Assembly (NCBI GenBank): GCA_017515285.1
Contig: JAFWGN010000007.1
Span: forward strand, 48,921-112,920
Reading direction: 5' to 3'
Length of the DNA stretch: 64,000 nt
DNA from: Candidatus Saccharimonadota bacterium
Lineage (GTDB): Bacteria; Patescibacteriota; Saccharimonadia; Saccharimonadales; Saccharimonadaceae
Shown one piece after another: positions 697-32,027 of this stretch; the first letter of the stretch is position 1; every line of letters starts with the position of its first letter. A model generated the notes under the pieces. It saw nothing but the letters and a program-made list of their open reading frames with translations. It made no database searches and was not told where the DNA came from. Both the position numbers and the translations under genes were made by a program.

Positions 697-3411
697 CTAG
701 TCGCGGGCGAGACAACGGATTGGCAGACCATTGATTTTGGCAGTGCCAGCCTGCGCGCTAAAGAAACCGCTAAAACTAAAATCGAAAATTCGAACCGATG
801 ACGAGTCGTGCCCAGTAGAAGACCAGAACATTCCGTTATTACCGCGACTTATTAATGCTCCATTGTTCCAATAATAGTATCCAAACATGGCGCTAGAAAT
901 CGGTAGCTGTATCGCTCCGGTAATAGAGGCACCACTGCCATATCCACTGCCAGTTAAAGAATAGGCATCTCGAAACAATTTAAGCCATGAGCCATTACTC
1001 GCGGAATCACCCGCTGGAAGTTTCCAGCCCTTCGGACAGATATCTTGCGATACGGTAGTGTCTGTGTCGTATTTGTATTGGCCAACTCCAGCCGTAGCTG
1101 CATACCAGTTATAGTAATCACCAAAGTACATCGAACCCCGCATGGTAAAGCTGTCGTTGTCGTCATCACCGCCACCGCCGTGGTCGGTAATTAACCCCGG
1201 TTGCCAAGCGCTATCGTGAGTCAAATTATTAGAACCAGAATAGGTTCCTTCCGGAAGCGAAACCATGCCTTTATAATTCATTCTACACTCGCTATGCCCG
1301 CTTCTTTCGTCGGCAGTATACGATATACAGGTTGCAACTGGACCTAGGAGGTTTTGTGTACCGTCCATGTAGGCAGGACCTTTGCCTGAACCGGTAGAGG
1401 TAGCCGTAGCAGAGTCGTTGTTGTAGGAACGGGCGTAAGAAGTATTAGCATTGATAGCGACAGATATAATGTTTGCTCCCGTGCACATCCCCGCGTTTAC
1501 GGCGGTATTAGCTCCGAACGGGCCAGTACCTTCTGCGCAGACCGAACCCCACTTAAGATCGTTGCCGAAGTTGGATTCGGATTGGAATTGATAATTCACA
1601 ACAGAAAGGCCTGCGGTAGCCCCGGTGGTTTCTAGAACGGTGTTTTTGGCTAGCATGACGGCGCTTGGGTCCCAATAATCGCTCGTGATATTTGTATTTT
1701 CCGAGGTTAGATTATGTGTTCCGGCAAAGTCGGCGAGGTTAAGGTCTAGGTTCTGAACCATCCAACAGTTACCATCGGCCAACCTACGGACGAGATAAGT
1801 CTTTTGGTCGCGGTTGTCTTCGAGGAGGAAGGTGCCAGTGCCGACCTTGGCGGATTGGGAGGCTATCGTATAGCCGGATTCGAGAGTAGAGTTAGAGTTT
1901 ACGAGAGCGGTGGAGTCGAAGCCGGAAGCGGTGGAAGTGTTGTTAACGCCGGTAGTGTCGGTCGGGGAGTAGATTCTCGCGTTGGCGCCGATAGTCTTGC
2001 CCCAAGTGTTGGTGTTCTTACAGATGCTTCCCGTCATCTCCTGCATCTCCCTCACCACAAAGTCTTCTCCTTCCGTGTCCGTTGTCGATTGTAGGCCGAC
2101 GTAGGTAAACGAAGCGACCAGGTTGTTACTGCCGTCCTTATAGCGGCTGATGTAGTTATAATTATAGTTGTTAACCTTAATCCAAAAGTCGTATTCTCCC
2201 TTGCCGTCACCTTTCCCGAGTATTCCGTCAATTGTTTCCGGTAGTTCACAGTCAAGACTAGCTCCATTCTCGCCAAAGACTACGTTAGAAATACTTGTGC
2301 ATTCAGCGTAATCATTATTACTAATCGTAAGGCTAGTATTACTGAGGCCTCCATCGATGAGTTTAGCCACACTATGCTTAACGATGGCCACGGTTAAGTT
2401 ATCGGCCGACAAGTCACTGGCGGAAGTTGCGAGGTCAAACTCAAGATGAACCGTGTCTCCTTCCCCACCAAAGGATTTATCACGCTTAACGTTAGTGGAG
2501 ATTCTATCAAGGCTTCTTGCGGAAGCGAGAGCCGTATAGACGATTTGGTTGGAGTATTCTCCGGCAATCGTATCGGTGTCGACCATGGTGGCAAAGTAGA
2601 TGTCGAAGTGGTTGTTTTCTGTATCTCCCGTGATGGTTTCTTCATTACTGCCCGTATATGTGCCGAACCCTTTAGTGTTATTAGTTTCTTGTTTCCAAAT
2701 CATTTGAGAAAGAGAGGTATTATTAACTACTGGGATAGCTGCCCATTTGGTCGTATTATAAACGTTACTATTACTAGCCGTTAGGTCGGAGGTGATATAG
2801 CCAGAAGAGGAACTAATCGGATAGGCAGAGTAAGCAGAGGCATTGTCAAAGCCATTCGTTACCGGGCTTCCCGGCACCGCATATCCCCAAGCCGAACCGG
2901 AGAAGACAGAAGGCGAGGTCCAGGTCCCGGAAGTTGAGCCGTCCCCTACGGACGGTATCGGGATGTTAGTGGTTCCGTCAAGTAGAAGGTCGTTAACGGC
3001 TGTACCGGAAGTTGGGTTTGCCATGGAGATATAGACGGCATAGTACTTTCCGGAAGTGTTAATCCCGATAGTCTTCTTCGCTACCCGCATAGTGCCTTTA
3101 TTACTATCGCTATTACTAGTAGGAGTAATCGTTCCAAAATTGATGTCGCCATGTCCAACATTACTCGTTGACCCGCCGGCTTGAGTTGCCGCATAGTCCG
3201 GGTCAAGCTCAAGGCTAATCCCGCTCCAAAGGACAGAAGCAGAAAGGTTGGTGGTGGCGGAAGCCTCGGAGATTAGAGTTGGAACTAGCGCGAAGAAAAC
3301 TAGAAAAAGCAAGAACGACGCGGTTGATCCAATAAGGTATTTGCGGTAGAGTGTGCGAAGTCTTATGTTCGTTTCTGCGTCGGTTAGGGTTGGTGTTTTG
3401 GTTGGGTGCAT
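697..3411 (-). CDS. Large secreted/surface protein, Ser/Thr/Asn-rich, N-terminal membrane anchor, C-terminal domain resembling the Fibrobacter succinogenes major paralogous domain (paralog of 29731-31707)
   Basis: 904 aa with a hydrophobic N-terminus followed by the conserved LVPTLISEASAT. The C-terminal region has MQEMTGSIC, DGNCWMVQNL, YYNWYAA and CPKGWKLP, ending RCLARD; its paralog ends RCVARD. A strong RBS (aaaggaggactATG) precedes the start. The domain assignment is from memory of TIGR02145-type motifs. Confidence 0.6.
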   Translation of the reverse strand: MHPTKTPTLTDAETNIRLRTLYRKYLIGSTASFLLFLVFFALVPTLISEASATTNLSASVLWSGISLELDPDYAATQAGGSTSNVGHGDINFGTITPTSNSDSNKGTMRVAKKTIGINTSGKYYAVYISMANPTSGTAVNDLLLDGTTNIPIPSVGDGSTSGTWTSPSVFSGSAWGYAVPGSPVTNGFDNASAYSAYPISSSSGYITSDLTASNSNVYNTTKWAAIPVVNNTSLSQMIWKQETNNTKGFGTYTGSNEETITGDTENNHFDIYFATMVDTDTIAGEYSNQIVYTALASARSLDRISTNVKRDKSFGGEGDTVHLEFDLATSASDLSADNLTVAIVKHSVAKLIDGGLSNTSLTISNNDYAECTSISNVVFGENGASLDCELPETIDGILGKGDGKGEYDFWIKVNNYNYNYISRYKDGSNNLVASFTYVGLQSTTDTEGEDFVVREMQEMTGSICKNTNTWGKTIGANARIYSPTDTTGVNNTSTASGFDSTALVNSNSTLESGYTIASQSAKVGTGTFLLEDNRDQKTYLVRRLADGNCWMVQNLDLNLADFAGTHNLTSENTNITSDYWDPSAVMLAKNTVLETTGATAGLSVVNYQFQSESNFGNDLKWGSVCAEGTGPFGANTAVNAGMCTGANIISVAINANTSYARSYNNDSATATSTGSGKGPAYMDGTQNLLGPVATCISYTADERSGHSECRMNYKGMVSLPEGTYSGSNNLTHDSAWQPGLITDHGGGGDDDNDSFTMRGSMYFGDYYNWYAATAGVGQYKYDTDTTVSQDICPKGWKLPAGDSASNGSWLKLFRDAYSLTGSGYGSGASITGAIQLPISSAMFGYYYWNNGALISRGNNGMFWSSTGHDSSSVRIFDFSFSGFFSAQAGTAKINGLPIRCLARD

Positions 3412-3662
3412 AGTCCTCCTTTTGGTTGTTAAACCCCGAGGGCTGATACAAAAATGGCACCACGAGGGTGCAACCCATCCAAATTATCCGCTTTCGCCAA
3501 ATAAATACAGAATGGTCCCTTATGGTGCCATTTTTTGTATTTATGTGGCGCTAACAGTTTCTCTGTTGGTCTTTTAAAAAGGTGCGGTTCTAGTTTATTC
3601 AACTAGTACTGGATGGGTTGCATTTATGGTTTTATTTTAGCACAAGAAAAGTCGCCTTGCAA
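3412..3662 (-). promoter_or_regulatory. Promoter plus long structured 5' leader of the surface-protein gene
   Basis: On the minus strand, TTGCAA (complement of 3657-3662), a 17 nt spacer and TAAAAT (complement of 3634-3639). The leader contains interleaved inverted repeats (caacccatcc/ggatgggttg; aaaaatggcacc/ggtgccattttt) and a motif shared with the paralog leader (aaatggcRccacgag). Confidence 0.4.
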
Positions 3663-5106: not shown

Positions 5107-7824
5107 TCATCTTTTCCTTTTATTTTTGTGTTGCTGTTTCCTTTTTTTGCGATTTTTGTTTCGAATTGTGTTGGAATTGGTATTTGGACCAGTTTTTTTC
5201 TTATTTTCTTCTTTGAATTCGCTGTCGAGGTTTTTGTCGCCCTTGGAGATTTCGTTAACGCCTTTTTCGGTGACGGTTTCCGCCATCTTGGTTAGTTCAG
5301 AATCGTATTCTTCGTCGTTGTTTTCGGGAAGGTTAGCTTCTTGGCGCGACAAGGTTAGAAGGATTTTTAAGACTTCTTCGCGGAGGTTTCTTTCGAGATT
5401 ATCGAAGAGTTTTTGGGACTCGGAGCGGTATTCGACGAGCGGATCACGTTGGCCGACGGAGCGCCAGTGAATTCCCTCGCGGAGATGTTGCATATTTTCC
5501 AGATGTTGCATCCAGAGTGCGTCGAGCACCTTGAGGTAAACTTCGCGCTCGACTTTACGCATGACGTCGCTACCGATTTCGGCTTCTTTTAGCGCGTAGG
5601 CTTCTTCGATGACGATGCGAGCGAGGTGGGCGCGGTCTTTTTCTTTCCGTAATTTTCCGATTTCGTCCACCAAATCTTCGTCAATCATCGGGAAGAGGCC
5701 GTGGAACTCTTCGTTGAACTTTTTGTTGATGCGGGAAGAGTCGCGGGTCAGGAAGTCGGCTTCGTCTTTGACTAGGCGCATAATTTCCGGGCGAATGTCG
5801 GCGCCTTCCAAGATTTGGCGGCGCATGGAATAGACGACTTTGCGGTGGCGGTTGATGACGTTGTCGTATTGGACGACGTTTTTGCGCGAGTCGAAGTTGA
5901 AACCTTCGATTTTCTTTTGGGCGTTTTCGAGGGTTTTGGAAATCGACTTGGTTTGGATTGGGGTGTCTTCATCGACGCCGAAACGGGTCATCAGTTGGGC
6001 GACGCGGTCGCCTTGGAAAATGCGCATCAAATCGTCTTCGCAAGAGACGAAGAATTGGGTGGTTCCGGGGTCGCCTTGGCGACCGCCACGACCACGGAGC
6101 TGGTTGTCGACGCGACGGGAATCGTGGCGAGCAGAGCCGATGACGACAAGGCCGCCGAGTTCCTTTACGCCTTCACCTAGTTTAATGTCGGTGCCGCGGC
6201 CGGCCATGTTGGTTGCGAGAGTGATAGCGCCTTTTTCGCCGGCGCGTTCGACGATGGCGGCTTCGCGCTCGTTGTTCTTGGCGTTCAAAATTTCGTAGTT
6301 AATGCCGCGTTCGTCAAGATAACGGGCAATTTCTTCGTTGTTTGCGATAGAGTCGGAGCCGACGAGAACGGGTTGACCCTTCGCGTGGTATTTTTCGATT
6401 TCGTTCGCGATGGCGCGGAGTTTACCGGCCTTGGTGCGGAAGATTAAGTCGTCTTTATCTACGCGGATGATGGGCTTGTTGGGTGGGATTTGAATGACGT
6501 CTAGGGCGTAGATTTGTTGGAACTCTTCGGCTTCAGTGAAGGCGGTTCCGGTCATCCCGGATAACTTATTGTAGAGGCGGAAGAAGTTTTGGAAAGAGAT
6601 GGTCGCGAGGGTCATGGACTCTTGCTTGACGGCGACGCCTTCTTTGGCTTCGATGGCCTGGTGCAAGCCTTCATTGTAGCGGCGGCCTTGCATGAGGCGG
6701 CCGGTGTGCTCATCGACGATGATGACTTCGCCCGAATTGGTTACGACATAGTCGCGGTCGCGCTTAAAAAGAGTTTCGGCACGAAGGGCTTGCTCCATGT
6801 GGTAAACGAAGTTGGTGTGTTTGGTGGAATAGAGCTCGTCGATACCGAGGAGTTCCTCGACTTTTTCGACGCCTTTATCGGTCAAGGTGACGGAGCGGTG
6901 CTTTTCGTCCAAAACGTAGTCGTCTTTGTTGAGTTGGGCAGCAATGCGGGCGAAAGCGTAGTAGGCGTCAGGATTGTCGCCGGCGGGAGCGGAGATGATG
7001 AGCGGGGTGCGGGCTTCGTCGATTAAGATAGAGTCAACTTCATCGACGATGGCGAAGTTGAGTTCGCGTTGACGGAGGAATTTGACTTCGCTGGTCATGT
7101 TGTCGCGGAGATAGTCGAAGCCGAATTCGTTGTTGGTACCGTAAGTAATGTCAGCGTTGTAGGCGTCTTTACGGGTTGCGGGCTTTAAGTGACGGAAGCG
7201 CTCGTCGGCGTGTTCCTCGTTGATATAGTCTTTATCGTAAACGAAGGAAGCGTTGTTGATAATGACGCCGACTTTGAGGCCGAGAAAATCATAAACGGGA
7301 CCGTTCCAACCGGCGTCGCGCTGAGCGAGGTAGTCGTTTACCGTAACGACGTGGACTCCTTTTCCGGGGAGAGCGTTCAAGACGGCGGGAAGGAGGGCGA
7401 CGAGGGTTTTGCCTTCGCCGGTTTTCATTTCGGCGACGTTGCCTTCGTGGAGCGCCATGCCGCCGATAAGTTGGACGTCGTAGGGGCGCATTCCAAGGAT
7501 GCGTTTCGTTGCTTCGCGACAGAGAGCGAAGACACTCGGGAGGAGATCGTCTAGGGATTTCTTCTTGGACGCTTCTCTAAATTCGGCGGCTTTTTCTTTT
7601 AGCTCGTCGTCGGACATTTTCTCGAACTTTGGTTCGAGCTTACCGATTTCTTGCGCCTTTTTGTAGTAGCGCTTCAAAATCTTTTTCTGAGCGTCGCCAA
7701 AAATACCTTGCAGGAATTTGTCGAGCGCGGTTTTGTCGGCGAGCTTGTCGGTCGGTTTCTTTTCTTTGGTCTTTTTCGGTTTAACGGGTTTTGCGGTTTT
7801 GGCCGCCCCTTGGTCTTTAGTCAT
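5107..7824 (-). CDS. secA: Preprotein translocase ATPase SecA
   Basis: 905 aa; LGMRPYDVQLIGGMALHEGNVAEMKTGEGKTLVA... matches the SecA DEAD-like motor. It has a Lys-rich N-terminal extension and a K/R-rich C-terminus. Confidence 0.95.
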   Translation of the reverse strand: MTKDQGAAKTAKPVKPKKTKEKKPTDKLADKTALDKFLQGIFGDAQKKILKRYYKKAQEIGKLEPKFEKMSDDELKEKAAEFREASKKKSLDDLLPSVFALCREATKRILGMRPYDVQLIGGMALHEGNVAEMKTGEGKTLVALLPAVLNALPGKGVHVVTVNDYLAQRDAGWNGPVYDFLGLKVGVIINNASFVYDKDYINEEHADERFRHLKPATRKDAYNADITYGTNNEFGFDYLRDNMTSEVKFLRQRELNFAIVDEVDSILIDEARTPLIISAPAGDNPDAYYAFARIAAQLNKDDYVLDEKHRSVTLTDKGVEKVEELLGIDELYSTKHTNFVYHMEQALRAETLFKRDRDYVVTNSGEVIIVDEHTGRLMQGRRYNEGLHQAIEAKEGVAVKQESMTLATISFQNFFRLYNKLSGMTGTAFTEAEEFQQIYALDVIQIPPNKPIIRVDKDDLIFRTKAGKLRAIANEIEKYHAKGQPVLVGSDSIANNEEIARYLDERGINYEILNAKNNEREAAIVERAGEKGAITLATNMAGRGTDIKLGEGVKELGGLVVIGSARHDSRRVDNQLRGRGGRQGDPGTTQFFVSCEDDLMRIFQGDRVAQLMTRFGVDEDTPIQTKSISKTLENAQKKIEGFNFDSRKNVVQYDNVINRHRKVVYSMRRQILEGADIRPEIMRLVKDEADFLTRDSSRINKKFNEEFHGLFPMIDEDLVDEIGKLRKEKDRAHLARIVIEEAYALKEAEIGSDVMRKVEREVYLKVLDALWMQHLENMQHLREGIHWRSVGQRDPLVEYRSESQKLFDNLERNLREEVLKILLTLSRQEANLPENNDEEYDSELTKMAETVTEKGVNEISKGDKNLDSEFKEENKKKTGPNTNSNTIRNKNRKKRKQQHKNKRKR

Positions 7825-29163: not shown

Positions 29164-29259
29164 TTGTTTCCTTTAGTTTAATAATATCCCCGGTATTTTA
29201 TCACAGAACGGGGAATTTTTCAAGGGCGAAATGGAAACCGCTTCAAGAATTATCTTCCG

Positions 29260-29359
29260 CTTCCCTCGGCCCTAGGTCTTCTTATTTTGAACATAGAGAA
29301 CTAAAGAACTAGATTTATATCTTGGCAATAGATTATTGAAGACCTAGAGCGGAAGGAAG
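29260..29359. repeat. Palindromic repeat family A, copy 2
   Basis: See the copy at 352-451. It is followed at 29401-29436 by a tail motif (gagctcggcttctagggcttgcggttgagc) that also follows copy 1. Confidence 0.85.
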
Positions 29360-29730
29360 CTTAAATGCGGGGCGAGCTTCAGTTCTGTTTTTGTCCAGGT
29401 GCCGAGCTCGGCTTCTAGGGCTTGCGGTTGAGCGCTCTGCGGTCGTGCGACTCCTAGTCCGGTTTTCGTCTGGTGCTCCGCGAACCCTATAATTTTGACA
29501 CATGTTCTCGGTCTTCGACCTCGACCCGCTCGTCGTTTCGGAAAGCACAGAGCGAGCTCTGGCTTTCTCTCAACTCCTCGGGGTTTCACTCAATCCTCGC
29601 AAATGCGCCTCGGGTAACACCGGCCGTCGATTTGCTCGGATGAGGAAAATGTCGTCAAAATTATCGGGTCTTGTGCGCAATCGACTAAAACCGAACTAGT
29701 CGTCGCCTCAAACAGTTAGTTGTTAAAATG

Positions 29731-31707
29731 CTAGTCGCGGGCGACGCACCGAACATATTGGGCACAAGCACGCTGCGGATAGCCGGCGTCTCTGCCTAAA
29801 ACTGATCCCACCCATTGGATGTTTTCCGAACCGCCAGGCGTGTACGCGGATTTTCTATTGGGCGTTGATGTTTTCCAATAGGCGTTTCCCTTAGCGTTCA
29901 GGCTCGTAGTAGAACCGCTTGGGTCATAAGAACCGCCGGCAACTGGCAGAAAAGCTAGCTGGAACGGATACATACTTTCCGCCTGGCTCGCGGAGGGCAA
30001 TTTCCAGTTTGCTGGACATAGGCTATGCTCGGCCTCGGTCCATGCGGTATCTATTGATACCGCTACAGTCATAGCTGTTGCGACGGCATAATTATACCAA
30101 ACTGTTGGATCGCCATTCGGGTCAAGGCCTTCGTGTAGCTTTGCCTCCGTAAAAGACCACGAAACAGCAGCGTCTTCGTAATTGATGTTCGTCGCGACCG
30201 CCACGTCGCTCGTCTCGGGGTCGAGAGTGGTGCCGACAAAGCGAAGGTTGTCAACCATCCAACAATCGTCTCCGAGTTTTCTGATTCTGTAGGAGATATC
30301 GTCACGAACATCCTTGAGGGAGAAGGTGGTGGCGGCGGAACTAGCCGAATCAAAGGCGGTGGTATTTTGGCAAATACTCCCCGTCATCTCCTGCATGGTC
30401 TTGACGTATGCTTCGGCGTTATCAGGGTCGCCGTCAGCGGTATGGATGGTTTGGAGGCCGATGCCGGTGGAATAGGTAATGGAAGCGATGTCGGAAGTGG
30501 TGCCGGTAGTGTCGTCCGTAGCGCGGCAATGGCTTAAGTAGCTAATCGTGCTTTGTCCATTCGGAGTGTTAATGATAACCCAAAAGTCGTATTCTCCGGC
30601 TTGGGCTATGGCATGGGAACTACTAGTGGTTCCCGTAGTGCCGATTGGTGGGAGCTTACAAGTAATGGTAGCACTGATGCTGTTTGAAGAAGCGCCGGTA
30701 GTGTCTATACTGTTAGTAGCGCACTTGGGATAATCGGTAGCGGTAAGGCTAGAAACATCATAATTATTGGTCGCGATAATGCTATGCGGAACTAGGTAGA
30801 TATTTATATCACTGATCGTTAGAGTCGAGTCTGTAGCGACAAGGTCAACCTCCAAAGTTTCTAGTTCGTTCATCATGCTTAACGCTGTGTCTTTATCGCG
30901 CATAATGTTCTCACTTAAGGTATCGAGGCTAGAAGTGGAAGCAATAGCAGTATAGAGGACTTGGTTCTCATAAGTCCCGGAAAGAACATCATTATCGACC
31001 ATAATGGAATAATAAATATAGAAGCTATCTCCCGAATCGAATCCAGAAACGACGTTTGTGGAGTTTCTTTGGATTTGGACAGCATTACCAAGGCTAGGAA
31101 CGCTAGACCATTTACCAGTATTATAGACCTGACTGCCGGTACCGGTTTTGGTCAGGTTATTGGCGGCAGTATCGATACCAGAAGCATTAGCAAGAAACGA
31201 GTCATAGGCCGAGAGAGTAGCGGAAGTCTCCGTGGTTGGAACAGCATAGCCCCAAGAGGATTGAGCGAAGCCGGAGACGATAGAGTCGGAAGTGGCGGGA
31301 ATGGAACGGGCGGAATCTTCGGACACGGTGAGTGAGTTATCGGCATCAGTCGTAGAAAGATAGACGGCATAATATTGGCCTTCGGTCGTAACGTCAATTT
31401 GCTTTTTAACGACCTTTTGAGTACCATAAGCACCGCTAGCGGTATCACGTCCAGAAGGAATGATGTCATAGAAGTTAATGTCGCCATGAGGGTCGAGAGT
31501 TAGCGAGATTGCTTGCCAGGTAACCGAGGCGGAGACTTCTTGGGTGGCGGAAGCCTCGGAAATTAAAGTTGGGACTAGACAGAAGCCGAGAATGAAAATA
31601 GCCAGTGCTCCGACGGAAGCGCCGAGTAGCTGGCGGATTAAGTTTCTTGATTTGATATTTCCGAGGGTTTCTTCGGGTGATTGTTCCCTTGGTTGGTTGG
31701 GTTGCAT
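29731..31707 (-). CDS. Large secreted/surface protein, paralog of 697-3411 (N-terminal anchor plus LVPTLISEASAT, C-terminal Fibrobacter-type domain)
   Basis: 658 aa. It shares the N-terminal motif, MQEMTGSIC, DDCWMVDNL, WYNYA, CPANWKLP and the ...RCVARD C-terminus with the 904-aa paralog, and has the same RBS/start context. Confidence 0.6.
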   Translation of the reverse strand: MQPNQPREQSPEETLGNIKSRNLIRQLLGASVGALAIFILGFCLVPTLISEASATQEVSASVTWQAISLTLDPHGDINFYDIIPSGRDTASGAYGTQKVVKKQIDVTTEGQYYAVYLSTTDADNSLTVSEDSARSIPATSDSIVSGFAQSSWGYAVPTTETSATLSAYDSFLANASGIDTAANNLTKTGTGSQVYNTGKWSSVPSLGNAVQIQRNSTNVVSGFDSGDSFYIYYSIMVDNDVLSGTYENQVLYTAIASTSSLDTLSENIMRDKDTALSMMNELETLEVDLVATDSTLTISDINIYLVPHSIIATNNYDVSSLTATDYPKCATNSIDTTGASSNSISATITCKLPPIGTTGTTSSSHAIAQAGEYDFWVIINTPNGQSTISYLSHCRATDDTTGTTSDIASITYSTGIGLQTIHTADGDPDNAEAYVKTMQEMTGSICQNTTAFDSASSAATTFSLKDVRDDISYRIRKLGDDCWMVDNLRFVGTTLDPETSDVAVATNINYEDAAVSWSFTEAKLHEGLDPNGDPTVWYNYAVATAMTVAVSIDTAWTEAEHSLCPANWKLPSASQAESMYPFQLAFLPVAGGSYDPSGSTTSLNAKGNAYWKTSTPNRKSAYTPGGSENIQWVGSVLGRDAGYPQRACAQYVRCVARD

Positions 31708-31980
31708 AGTCCTCCTTTTAGTTTTTTAACTGTGGGAGCCATGACTTTGGAACAGAAATGGCGCCACGAGACTTGCAAAGCCCAACACATTGATTGTATT
31801 TTTACAACAAACTCAATAATGGGGTTCTCATGACGCCATTAATATAAGGTTGTTGTAAAAATAATACTTTTAATAAACAATCTTTAATAATGTTGAGCTT
31901 TGCATATCTATGATAGCACGAATAAAAAACGATGGGTAGACTATTTTTTCGCGCGTAATATGTTCTAATATTTCTTAAAC
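31708..31980 (-). promoter_or_regulatory. Structured 5' leader of surface-protein paralog 2 (homologous motif to 3412-3662)
   Basis: Shares ctcgtggYgccattt and aaatggcgcc/aatggcgtca partners with leader 1. Confidence 0.4.
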
Positions 31981-32006
31981 AAAAATCCCCGCGAGATGAC
32001 GGGGAT
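31981..32006 (-). terminator. Rho-independent terminator downstream of tsf
   Basis: Minus strand aucccc gucaucucg cggggau, then uuuuu. Confidence 0.6.
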
Positions 32007-32027
32007 TTTCGGTATATATAATATATA

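Follow-up and report, generated by a model that had tools for sequence, protein, structure and literature searches.

A candidate leader RNA family with two competing folds upstream of cell-envelope genes in Saccharibacteria

The window analysed here is a 64,000-nucleotide (nt) stretch of Candidatus Saccharimonadota bacterium contig JAFWGN010000007.1 (GCA_017515285.1, positions 48,921 to 112,920). Two paralogous genes in it, gene A and gene B, are each preceded by a non-coding stretch of ~300 nt (leader 1 and leader 2), and the question raised by this locus is whether these leaders are regulatory RNAs and, if so, how they would act. Saccharibacteria live attached to host bacteria, and control of surface proteins is therefore central to their biology. 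A full-text literature search returned no description of a regulatory RNA in Saccharibacteria or other ultrasmall Patescibacteria, the little that was found being introns, and no description of a leader element of this kind. Coordinates below are window positions, and both leaders and both genes are on the minus strand.

A sequence-only reading of the window had described a conserved, structured 5' leader, its pairings being either a pseudoknot or interleaved alternatives, and had proposed that it regulates the gene behind it in cis. Structure, conservation and covariation are all borne out on 20 distinct copies, the basis of the family counts that follow, and sequence comparison supports the cis-regulatory reading in its general form. 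Two of the copies are those in the window, 12 precede other paralogs of genes A and B (10 of these in Saccharibacteria bins), and six, in low-GC metagenome contigs, precede unrelated membrane genes or no gene. We propose, with a probability of roughly 0.55, that the leaders are a cis-acting switch: pairing between two conserved segments, alpha and beta, would form a split terminator that lets the ribosome-binding site (RBS) close, and pairing of beta with downstream sequence would open the RBS. A leader of this design probably turns the expression of cell-envelope proteins on and off.

A leader RNA shared by envelope-protein genes

The copies were assembled from several sources. A search with the N-terminal domain of the gene A protein found four relatives among 5.8 billion proteins. 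Two of these, L001 and L004, carry the leader; the element was not found at the more distant L002 and L003, whose leaders are short. Scanning a single genome for each species added eight further paralogs, all with the leader and all in Candidatus Saccharibacteria bins (three bins, with six paralogs in one of them). Seven more copies lie in low-GC metagenome contigs. These came from a scan with the pattern GCACCTCGYGGTGCCNNTTTT, which was poorly chosen (GCACC-UCGY-GGUGC is itself a hairpin) and under-samples the spread of the family: its 120 matches were mostly ordinary terminators in high-GC soil contigs, and the 11 real loci yielded the seven more distinct copies, including a second one in L014. 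In three contigs the assembly breaks inside the leader (L015 and L037 in the P1 3' arm or just before beta, L004 in the P1 5' arm; P1 is the outer helix described below), as expected of a repeat present in many copies, at which assemblies tend to end.

The downstream genes in the low-GC contigs are not homologs of genes A and B. They encode a DUF2569 membrane protein, two proteins with signal peptides and a tandem pair of TM2-domain membrane proteins; each gene of this pair, in L014 (101..1473), has its own promoter and leader copy. The likeness between leaders 1 and 2 could have been that of co-duplicated DNA, a possibility that the sequence-only reading had raised against itself. Such an origin cannot explain the likeness, because the element also precedes these non-homologous genes. 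The paired blocks are present in 12 of 12 other long leaders of the paralog family, and the leader blocks are nearly identical between leaders 1 and 2 despite 31% identity of the proteins. A leader shared by unrelated envelope genes provides a concrete candidate regulatory element and a search model for the rest of its putative regulon.

A covariance model of the alpha-to-beta part gives members 47-76 bits, compared with 21-32 bits for ordinary terminators. It matches the window exactly twice, at leaders 1 and 2, and finds no further copy there; the sense strands score 61 and 61 bits, the antisense strands 38 and 19. Searching Rfam with the motif, a check that had been recommended at the outset, matched no family. 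With Rfam 15 (4227 models) at gathering thresholds, tRNA alone passes in the whole window. Both leaders searched at E values up to 10 gave noise (at most 31.6 bits, against thresholds of 36-171), and at the 18 other member loci nothing passes except tRNAs and an unrelated DUF3800-XI RNA. This small RNA (51.4 bits) lies at L011 1237..1285 (+), ~1 kb upstream of a leader-bearing paralog in Saccharibacteria bin CAYODV01. Judged by shared sequence and pairing, leaders 1 and 2 belong to one previously undescribed RNA family of Saccharibacteria-like genomes.

The copies have a common architecture. In all 19 copies that include the region, P1 is preceded at a distance of 5-14 nt by a TATAAT-like -10 box, often with TG. 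P1 has at least 8 base pairs (bp), up to ~22 bp in some copies, and usually starts with UGCA and ends with UGCA; the second copy in L014 has a GUAC/GUAC base in place of UGCA/UGCA. P1 closes a rod of 100-283 nt, which in some copies (L101, L058) is a plain hairpin interrupted by internal loops and in others (leader 1, L011) a multi-branched structure. The tip of the rod is the alpha hairpin, in which a foot, N1N2GG, pairs with CCN2'N1' around a loop of CAYCRUGAGG plus 2-4 spacer bases. Beta, CCUCGYGGUGCCNN, begins 0-2 nt after the P1 3' arm and is followed by four to six U. The alpha-beta spacing is 60-71 nt in 16 of the 20 copies, and the 5' side of the rod runs from 40 to 176 nt. Alpha and beta form a helix of 14-20 bp whose loop, 41-87 nt, consists of a strand that pairs with upstream sequence. 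In 18 of 20 copies the element directly precedes a gene with an RBS, 35-120 nt downstream. Family-wide conservation is limited to alpha, beta, the U run and the base of P1.

This pattern of conservation bears on a small-molecule riboswitch, in which the rod would be the aptamer and the downstream segments, with the RBS, the expression platform. A stable, covarying fold with alternative helices and a regulon-like placement before several unrelated genes would suit such a device. Nothing between P1 and alpha is conserved family-wide, however, where an aptamer would show invariant junction or loop nucleotides and a fixed architecture; the rod varies between 100 and 283 nt and from plain hairpin to multi-branched, a CCGCAC junction motif is limited to one subgroup, and no riboswitch model in Rfam matches. 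We regard a riboswitch as very improbable.

No conserved leader peptide was found: 12 of 20 leaders have no open reading frame (ORF) of at least six codons behind an RBS-like sequence, and the ORFs of the others lie at differing places. In L128, L065 and L100 the alpha loop contains GAGG followed after 4 nt by AUG and an ORF of 9-12 codons. This arrangement is not kept in the rest of the family and could be chance or a subgroup-specific mini-ORF.

Covariation and two competing folds

Base pairing was evaluated on a block alignment (A3) of 8 nt from each P1 arm, alpha with its 6-nt flank and beta with its 6-nt tail, joined by artificial linkers; to keep it gap-free, the bulged base of alpha was deleted in eight sequences (in the case of L010, an extra base pair). 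In A3, 93.1% of the cells are paired, compared with 74.5% after shuffling (0 of 500 shuffles as high), and the covariation score is 0.52, against 0.19 for shuffled sequences and 0.08-0.11 when the partners are slid. Changes on both sides occur at 8 of 8 P1 pairs and 8 of 20 alpha:beta pairs; one alpha:beta position is A-U in 11 copies and G-C in 8, and another is A-U in 8, C-G in 4 and U-A in 4. An unedited MAFFT alignment of the natural sequences (A4) gives the same picture for alpha:beta, with 87.3% paired versus 79.6% (0 of 500) and a score of 0.341 versus 0.198.

The covariation is visible between the two copies in the window. In leader 1, AAAAAAUGGCACCAUAAGG (3537..3518) is complementary to CCUCGUGGUGCCAUUUUUGU (3467..3448); in leader 2, AAUGGCGUCAUGAGA (31840..31826) pairs with UCUCGUGGCGCCAUU (31771..31757). 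The sequence-only reading had pointed to a single compensatory switch from A-U in leader 1 to G-C in leader 2. This double change is confirmed, and alongside it an adjacent C-G becomes U.G and a terminal G-C becomes A-U. Across the family, compensation occurs at many positions and not at one alone. The outer helix also differs in sequence between leaders 1 and 2, and P1 thus covaries between the two copies too. Both leaders fold far better than shuffled sequences (z = -6.25 for leader 1 and -6.29 for leader 2, with 0 of 200 shuffles as good in either case).

Pairs of the G.U type are conserved within alpha:beta, in 16 of 20 copies at one position and in 8 of 20 at two others. Together with the strand asymmetry of the model scores, they place the structure in the sense-strand RNA. 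A DNA-level element (sites for a recombinase or transcription factor, or an invertible promoter) or inert co-copied DNA would account for inverted repeats near the promoter of surface-protein genes and for the 38-bit score of an antisense strand. On the other strand, however, the conserved G.U pairs are A.C mismatches, which are meaningless in duplex DNA, and the promoter lies upstream of both repeats, where an invertible promoter would lie between them. The many compensatory changes, the placement before non-homologous genes and the better conservation of the leader blocks than of the 31%-identical proteins also speak against this explanation, which we find hardly credible.

The two stems of leader 1 and the corresponding pairing of leader 2 are present where they had first been placed, and they interleave, since the order of helix strands in the leader 1 RNA is P1-5', alpha, P1-3', beta. 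The P1-beta joint is 0-2 nt, and alpha is at the opposite end of the rod. A static pseudoknot that keeps the whole rod was considered and was judged sterically strained; P1 and alpha:beta would coexist only in a sharply bent or partly melted rod.

The foot of alpha, N1N2GG, pairs locally in 18 of 20 minimum-energy rods, and it pairs with the CCNN of beta in 20 of 20 copies. N1N2 takes nine different values, and both partners, the local one and beta, track them. Because the same foot bases cannot sit in both helices at once, both folds must matter; read from the sequences, a foot that covaries with two partners is the signature of a switch. Beta has a downstream partner as well, in most copies a segment of the form AYGAGGU, which we call gamma, and in others another copy of an AAUGGC-like stretch, which has GCCAUUUU as its partner. 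In L010, matching substitutions are present in beta (CCUCAAU), alpha (AUUGGGG) and gamma (UUGAGG).

The alpha:beta duplex has a mean predicted energy of -27 kcal/mol; opening alpha costs +9, leaving a net -18, and the downstream pairing of beta gains -7.4. By these modelled energies the alpha:beta and beta-downstream states are both substantial.

Leaders 1 and 2, the U run and the ribosome-binding site

The features of leader 1 are as follows.

about 3633-3409, minus strand: whole of leader 1, 5' of gene A
3634..3662, minus strand: promoter called by a scanner, TTGCAA-17-TAAAAT with TG before the -10 box (9 of 12 consensus matches)
3622..3609, minus strand: 5' arm of P1, UGCAACCCAUCCAG, the outer helix of the rod
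3606..3590, minus strand: P2 hairpin, an inner rod element
3587..3579, minus strand: CCGCACCUU segment, whose CCGC pairs with GCGG at 3491..3488
3511..3537, minus strand: alpha, with an A tract (3537..3532), AUGG and loop CACCAUAAGGGA (3531..3516) and closing strand CCAUU (3515..3511)
3482..3469, minus strand: 3' arm of P1, UUGGAUGGGUUGCA, partner of UGCAACCCAUCCAG
3471..3457, minus strand: local terminator-like hairpin called by the scanner, GCACC-CUCGU-GGUGC, formed by beta with the preceding GCAC (5 bp plus the U run)
3467..3454, minus strand: beta, CCUCGUGGUGCCAU, followed by the U run UUUUGU (3453..3448)
3446..3539, minus strand: covariance model match, 61.2 bits
3442..3432, minus strand: gamma, CCCUCGGGGUU, in the expression platform
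3427..3424, minus strand: AACC, in the expression platform
3421..3413, minus strand: RBS, AAGGAGGAC, with AUG at 3411..3409

In leader 1, alpha can pair with beta, and the AUGG at the foot of alpha has a local partner as well. The P2 hairpin and the CCGCACCUU segment are kept solely within the subgroup that contains the window copies; the CCGC:GCGG pair of leader 1 becomes CGAC:GUCG in L128. The scanner placed the leader 1 promoter at 3662..3634, in agreement with the TTGCAA-17-TAAAAT promoter named in the sequence-only reading.

The features of leader 2 are as follows.

about 31909-31705, minus strand: whole of leader 2, 5' of gene B
31910..31919, minus strand: extended -10 box gTGcTATCAT, read from the sequence
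31904..31890, minus strand: 5' arm of P1, UGCAAAGCUCAACAU, pairing with AUGUGUUGGGCUUUGCA
31818..31846, minus strand: alpha, with its flank and AUGG, loop CGUCAUGAGAACC and local closing strand CCAUU
31790..31774, minus strand: 3' arm of P1, AUGUGUUGGGCUUUGCA, partner of UGCAAAGCUCAACAU
31751..31771, minus strand: beta, UCUCGUGGCGCCAU, and a weaker U-rich run, UUCUGUU
31750..31847, minus strand: covariance model match, 60.7 bits
31742..31734, minus strand: AUGGCUCCC, which pairs with the GCCAU of beta and contains CUCC, complementary to the RBS
31717..31709, minus strand: RBS, AAGGAGGAC, with AUG at 31707..31705

Both leaders end with AAAAGGAGGACUAUG, as had been noted. The span first assigned to leader 2, 31708-31980, contains the same block, but the transcribed part starts near 31909, and the promoter lies within 31910-31980. 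The scanner found no full promoter for leader 2, which has no good -35 hexamer; its promoter stretch resembles the promoter regions of L005, L008 and L010. These four (31910..31950 in leader 2) share a second promoter type, AAAAUMUAGUCUWCC, ~14 nt and CGUGMUAWMAU, with an extended -10 box and no recognisable -35 hexamer. The conserved upstream block could be a transcription-factor binding site. Leader 1, L001 and L006 use TTGCAA-17-TAAAAT.

In the alignment of the U run, three columns show no variation, a fourth has U in at least 90% of copies, and the bases opposite vary (A, G and mismatches). Since the partner bases vary while the U's stay fixed, the U's are conserved beyond the needs of pairing, as in a terminator. 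The alpha:beta helix ends flush with the U run in 20 of 20 copies, like the GC-rich stem of an intrinsic terminator, which stops 0-2 nt short of its U's. The loop is not the 3-8 nt of an intrinsic terminator, and the element lies between promoter and RBS, not at the end of a transcription unit. The local 5-bp GCACC/GGUGC hairpin was rejected as a functional terminator: it has no covariation support and is absent in leader 2, L006 and L010, whereas alpha:beta is present in all copies.

RBS accessibility was predicted for the 18 copies with a gene, over the stretch that runs from beta up to the start codon. The predicted unpaired probability of the RBS core averages 0.51 when beta is free to pair, 0.27 when it is blocked and 0.23 when it is shuffled (real versus shuffled beta, Wilcoxon p = 2e-5), and it is higher with beta free in 14 of 18 leaders. 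The corresponding fractions are 0.44, 0.23 and 0.25 for leader 1 and 0.38, 0.13 and 0.20 for leader 2.

These data suggest the following order of events. Transcription would start a few bases before P1, and beta would then have two mutually exclusive partners, alpha upstream and gamma downstream. In the OFF state, alpha:beta would act as an intrinsic terminator whose loop is replaced by the 3' strands of the rod, and would stop transcription; in full-length mRNA, it would leave the downstream segment (gamma) free to cover the RBS. In the ON state, beta would pair with gamma and the RBS would be open. An attenuator, a thermosensor and a riboswitch-like element had all been offered as readings of these leaders. 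The attenuator-like switch fits best, because the foot covaries with two partners, the U run is invariant and beta controls predicted RBS access; a small-molecule riboswitch is unlikely, as set out above. A thermosensor of the ROSE or fourU type, in which a U-rich or UUGCU strand holds the RBS in a weak, mismatched hairpin, is conceivable. The FourU thermometer model gives 13.4 bits on the wrong strand, and the RBS is predicted to be partly paired without beta, although not in all copies. Only alpha, beta and the P1 base are conserved, so that the trigger would act on the alpha loop: masking or exposing it (by a protein, an RNA, temperature or timed refolding after transcription) is most likely, not a small molecule in the rod.

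Several points weigh against this switch. RBS closure without beta is marginal (0.27 versus 0.40 for shuffles, p = 0.06, with 4 of 18 leaders in the opposite direction), and the U run of leader 2 is weak (UUUCUGUU). The pseudoknot-free rod, at a mean of -63 kcal/mol, is much more stable than alpha:beta, and the tip of a rigid rod cannot reach its base, so that alpha:beta would need hinges, partial melting or a kinetic route. The register of P1 was taken from each sequence's own fold, and its 100% pairing is therefore partly by construction, although its sequence variation is not. The 20 copies are phylogenetically related, six of them coming from one genome, and the shuffle statistics overstate their independence and are not to be read as probabilities. 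The transcription start, the trigger, the direction of control and the ending of transcripts at the U run are inferred from sequence. Finally, the L039 and L044 copies have no downstream gene and are followed by convergent genes.

The last point would be expected of a small RNA, in which a product of ~110-300 nt, spanning transcription start and U run and ended by the split terminator, would work in trans, perhaps via the alpha loop, with readthrough being secondary. The invariant U run would fit, as would the near identity of alpha and beta across paralogous loci of one genome, which makes cross-talk possible. Against it, 18 of 20 copies stand directly before a gene with an RBS, the stretch from beta to the RBS holds the conserved beta partners, and the orphan copies, lying among gene fragments, may be remnants. 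We consider a small RNA quite improbable. The fragments are short ORFs ending in GFPLRCLSTVL or GFSIRCLSTVL (L039 4857..5090 (+) and 5682..5909 (-); L044 2358..2711 (-)), which resemble the C-terminal end of genes A and B, LPIRCLARD; in L039 they flank the orphan leader copy. Their sequences suggest gene fragments and rearrangement around these loci.

The chief alternative account would make the leader a constitutive 5' stabiliser for abundant envelope-protein mRNAs, perhaps in concert with RBS-like sequences, with alpha:beta merely compacting the RNA and nothing being sensed. P1 begins 5-14 nt after the -10 box, which probably places the 5' end inside a helix of no fewer than 8 and up to ~22 bp, the envelope-protein genes downstream have very strong ribosome-binding sites, and the interior of the rod is free to vary. 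Several copies (among them L004 and L014b) also contain a perfect RBS-like GAGGUGAU with no start codon behind it. A stabiliser leaves unexplained why the alpha foot covaries with two partners, why beta specifically opens the predicted RBS, and why conservation is highest in beta, the alpha loop and the U run when P1 alone would suffice. We judge a stabiliser unlikely; if the leader were that and nothing more, it would still be a useful marker of highly expressed surface genes.

Within the proposed switch, the topology itself may have a role. The two terminator halves would be held apart by the rod, and a helix at the 5' end would cross the terminator helix, so that one factor touching the alpha loop, or timed refolding, would decide both premature termination and ribosome access. 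We put this topological gating forward tentatively, as possible but doubtful. Such a topologically gated split terminator would be a new class of control element and a possible new terminator/antiterminator arrangement, in which exclusion comes through topology and not through shared bases. If true, it would mark an envelope regulon in Saccharibacteria and related ultrasmall bacteria and could give a first handle on surface regulation in these epibionts, for example upon host contact.

Related systems and neighbouring genes

The family is of a known general kind with an unusual topology, in bacteria whose regulation is nearly unknown. In trp-operon attenuation, helices 1:2, 2:3 and 3:4 relay one another. 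The leaders resemble trp-type attenuators and riboswitch platforms in their exclusive chain (alpha:beta versus beta:gamma, gamma versus RBS), in the U run behind one helix and in shared bases that covary with two partners. They differ from these in having no conserved leader peptide or aptamer and in a terminator-like helix that crosses P1, giving a pseudoknot topology, with a loop of 41-87 nt and not 3-8.

Beta with the U run and alpha with the A tract correspond to the two halves of an intrinsic terminator (A-tract, GC-stem, U-tract), and plain GGGCACC-UCGC-GGUGCCC-UUUUU terminators, which made up most matches of the metagenome pattern, fit the covariance model with its interior deleted. Unlike those of a terminator, the halves here are 41-87 nt apart, the intervening strand is paired upstream and the element lies between promoter and gene. 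A standard intrinsic terminator is present directly 3' of tsf (~31977..32010 (-), AAAAUCCCCG-UCAUCUCG-CGGGGAUUUUUGUUU), followed by the leader 2 promoter; the scanner did not list it. To judge from its sequence, it is this genome's normal terminator style (A-tract, stem, U-tract), which the alpha:beta helix imitates.

Translation of hok/sok-type mRNAs, and of the MS2 maturation gene through its leader, is timed or gated by long-range pairings that refold. The likeness would lie in covariation-backed long-distance helices, in a relay of boxes that sets RBS access and in an early, kinetically favoured fold that differs from the final stable one. Unlike them, the present leaders have no toxin gene, antisense RNA or 3' processing signal that we could identify, and the gene classes and organisms are unrelated.

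The ompA and aprE 5' stem-loops, the leaders of S-layer genes and STAB-SD elements are 5' protective structures that give long-lived, high-yield mRNA. S-layer and outer-membrane leaders and STAB-SD stabilisers share with the present ones a long structured leader, a 5' end in a helix and highly expressed surface-protein genes downstream, and some of the present copies have extra RBS-like sequences. S-layer, outer-membrane and STAB-SD elements are simple 5' hairpins that are not known to have a conserved second pairing, a U run or dual covariation.

The GUGGUGCC of beta resembles the T-box core GUGGUACC, and UGGU:ACCA recalls the contact with the tRNA acceptor end. There is, however, no Rfam T-box match at E = 10, Stem I and a specifier are lacking, the bases that would correspond to CCA differ among copies (GCCGA, GCCUG, GCCCU), and the genes downstream are envelope genes, not amino-acid genes. 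The T-box, together with PyrR-type, ANTAR-type and cyclic-dinucleotide riboswitch elements, was dropped on the grounds of no Rfam matches and missing defining features.

The genes served by the two leaders are as follows.

697..3411, minus strand: gene A, a 904-residue secreted protein whose N-terminal hydrophobic segment ends in LVPTLISEASA
29731..31707, minus strand: gene B, a 658-residue paralog of gene A whose N-terminal hydrophobic segment ends in LVPTLISEASA

Both proteins have a weak C-terminal match to the FISUMP (Fib_succ_major) domain. Gene A is preceded by an M16 peptidase gene and secA, gene B by rpsB and tsf. Gene B and rplF are separated by a gap of ~570 nt (29164..29730, gene B stop to rplF start) with no ORF of at least 100 residues and no Rfam match; the S8 gene, expected upstream of L6, is not evident nearby. 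Part of the gap (29330..29730 (-)) folds at -150.7 kcal/mol, with z = -6.4 relative to 100 shuffles, and on this prediction the gap may hold a structured RNA that is not annotated, or else the ribosomal-protein operon may have a long structured leader here.

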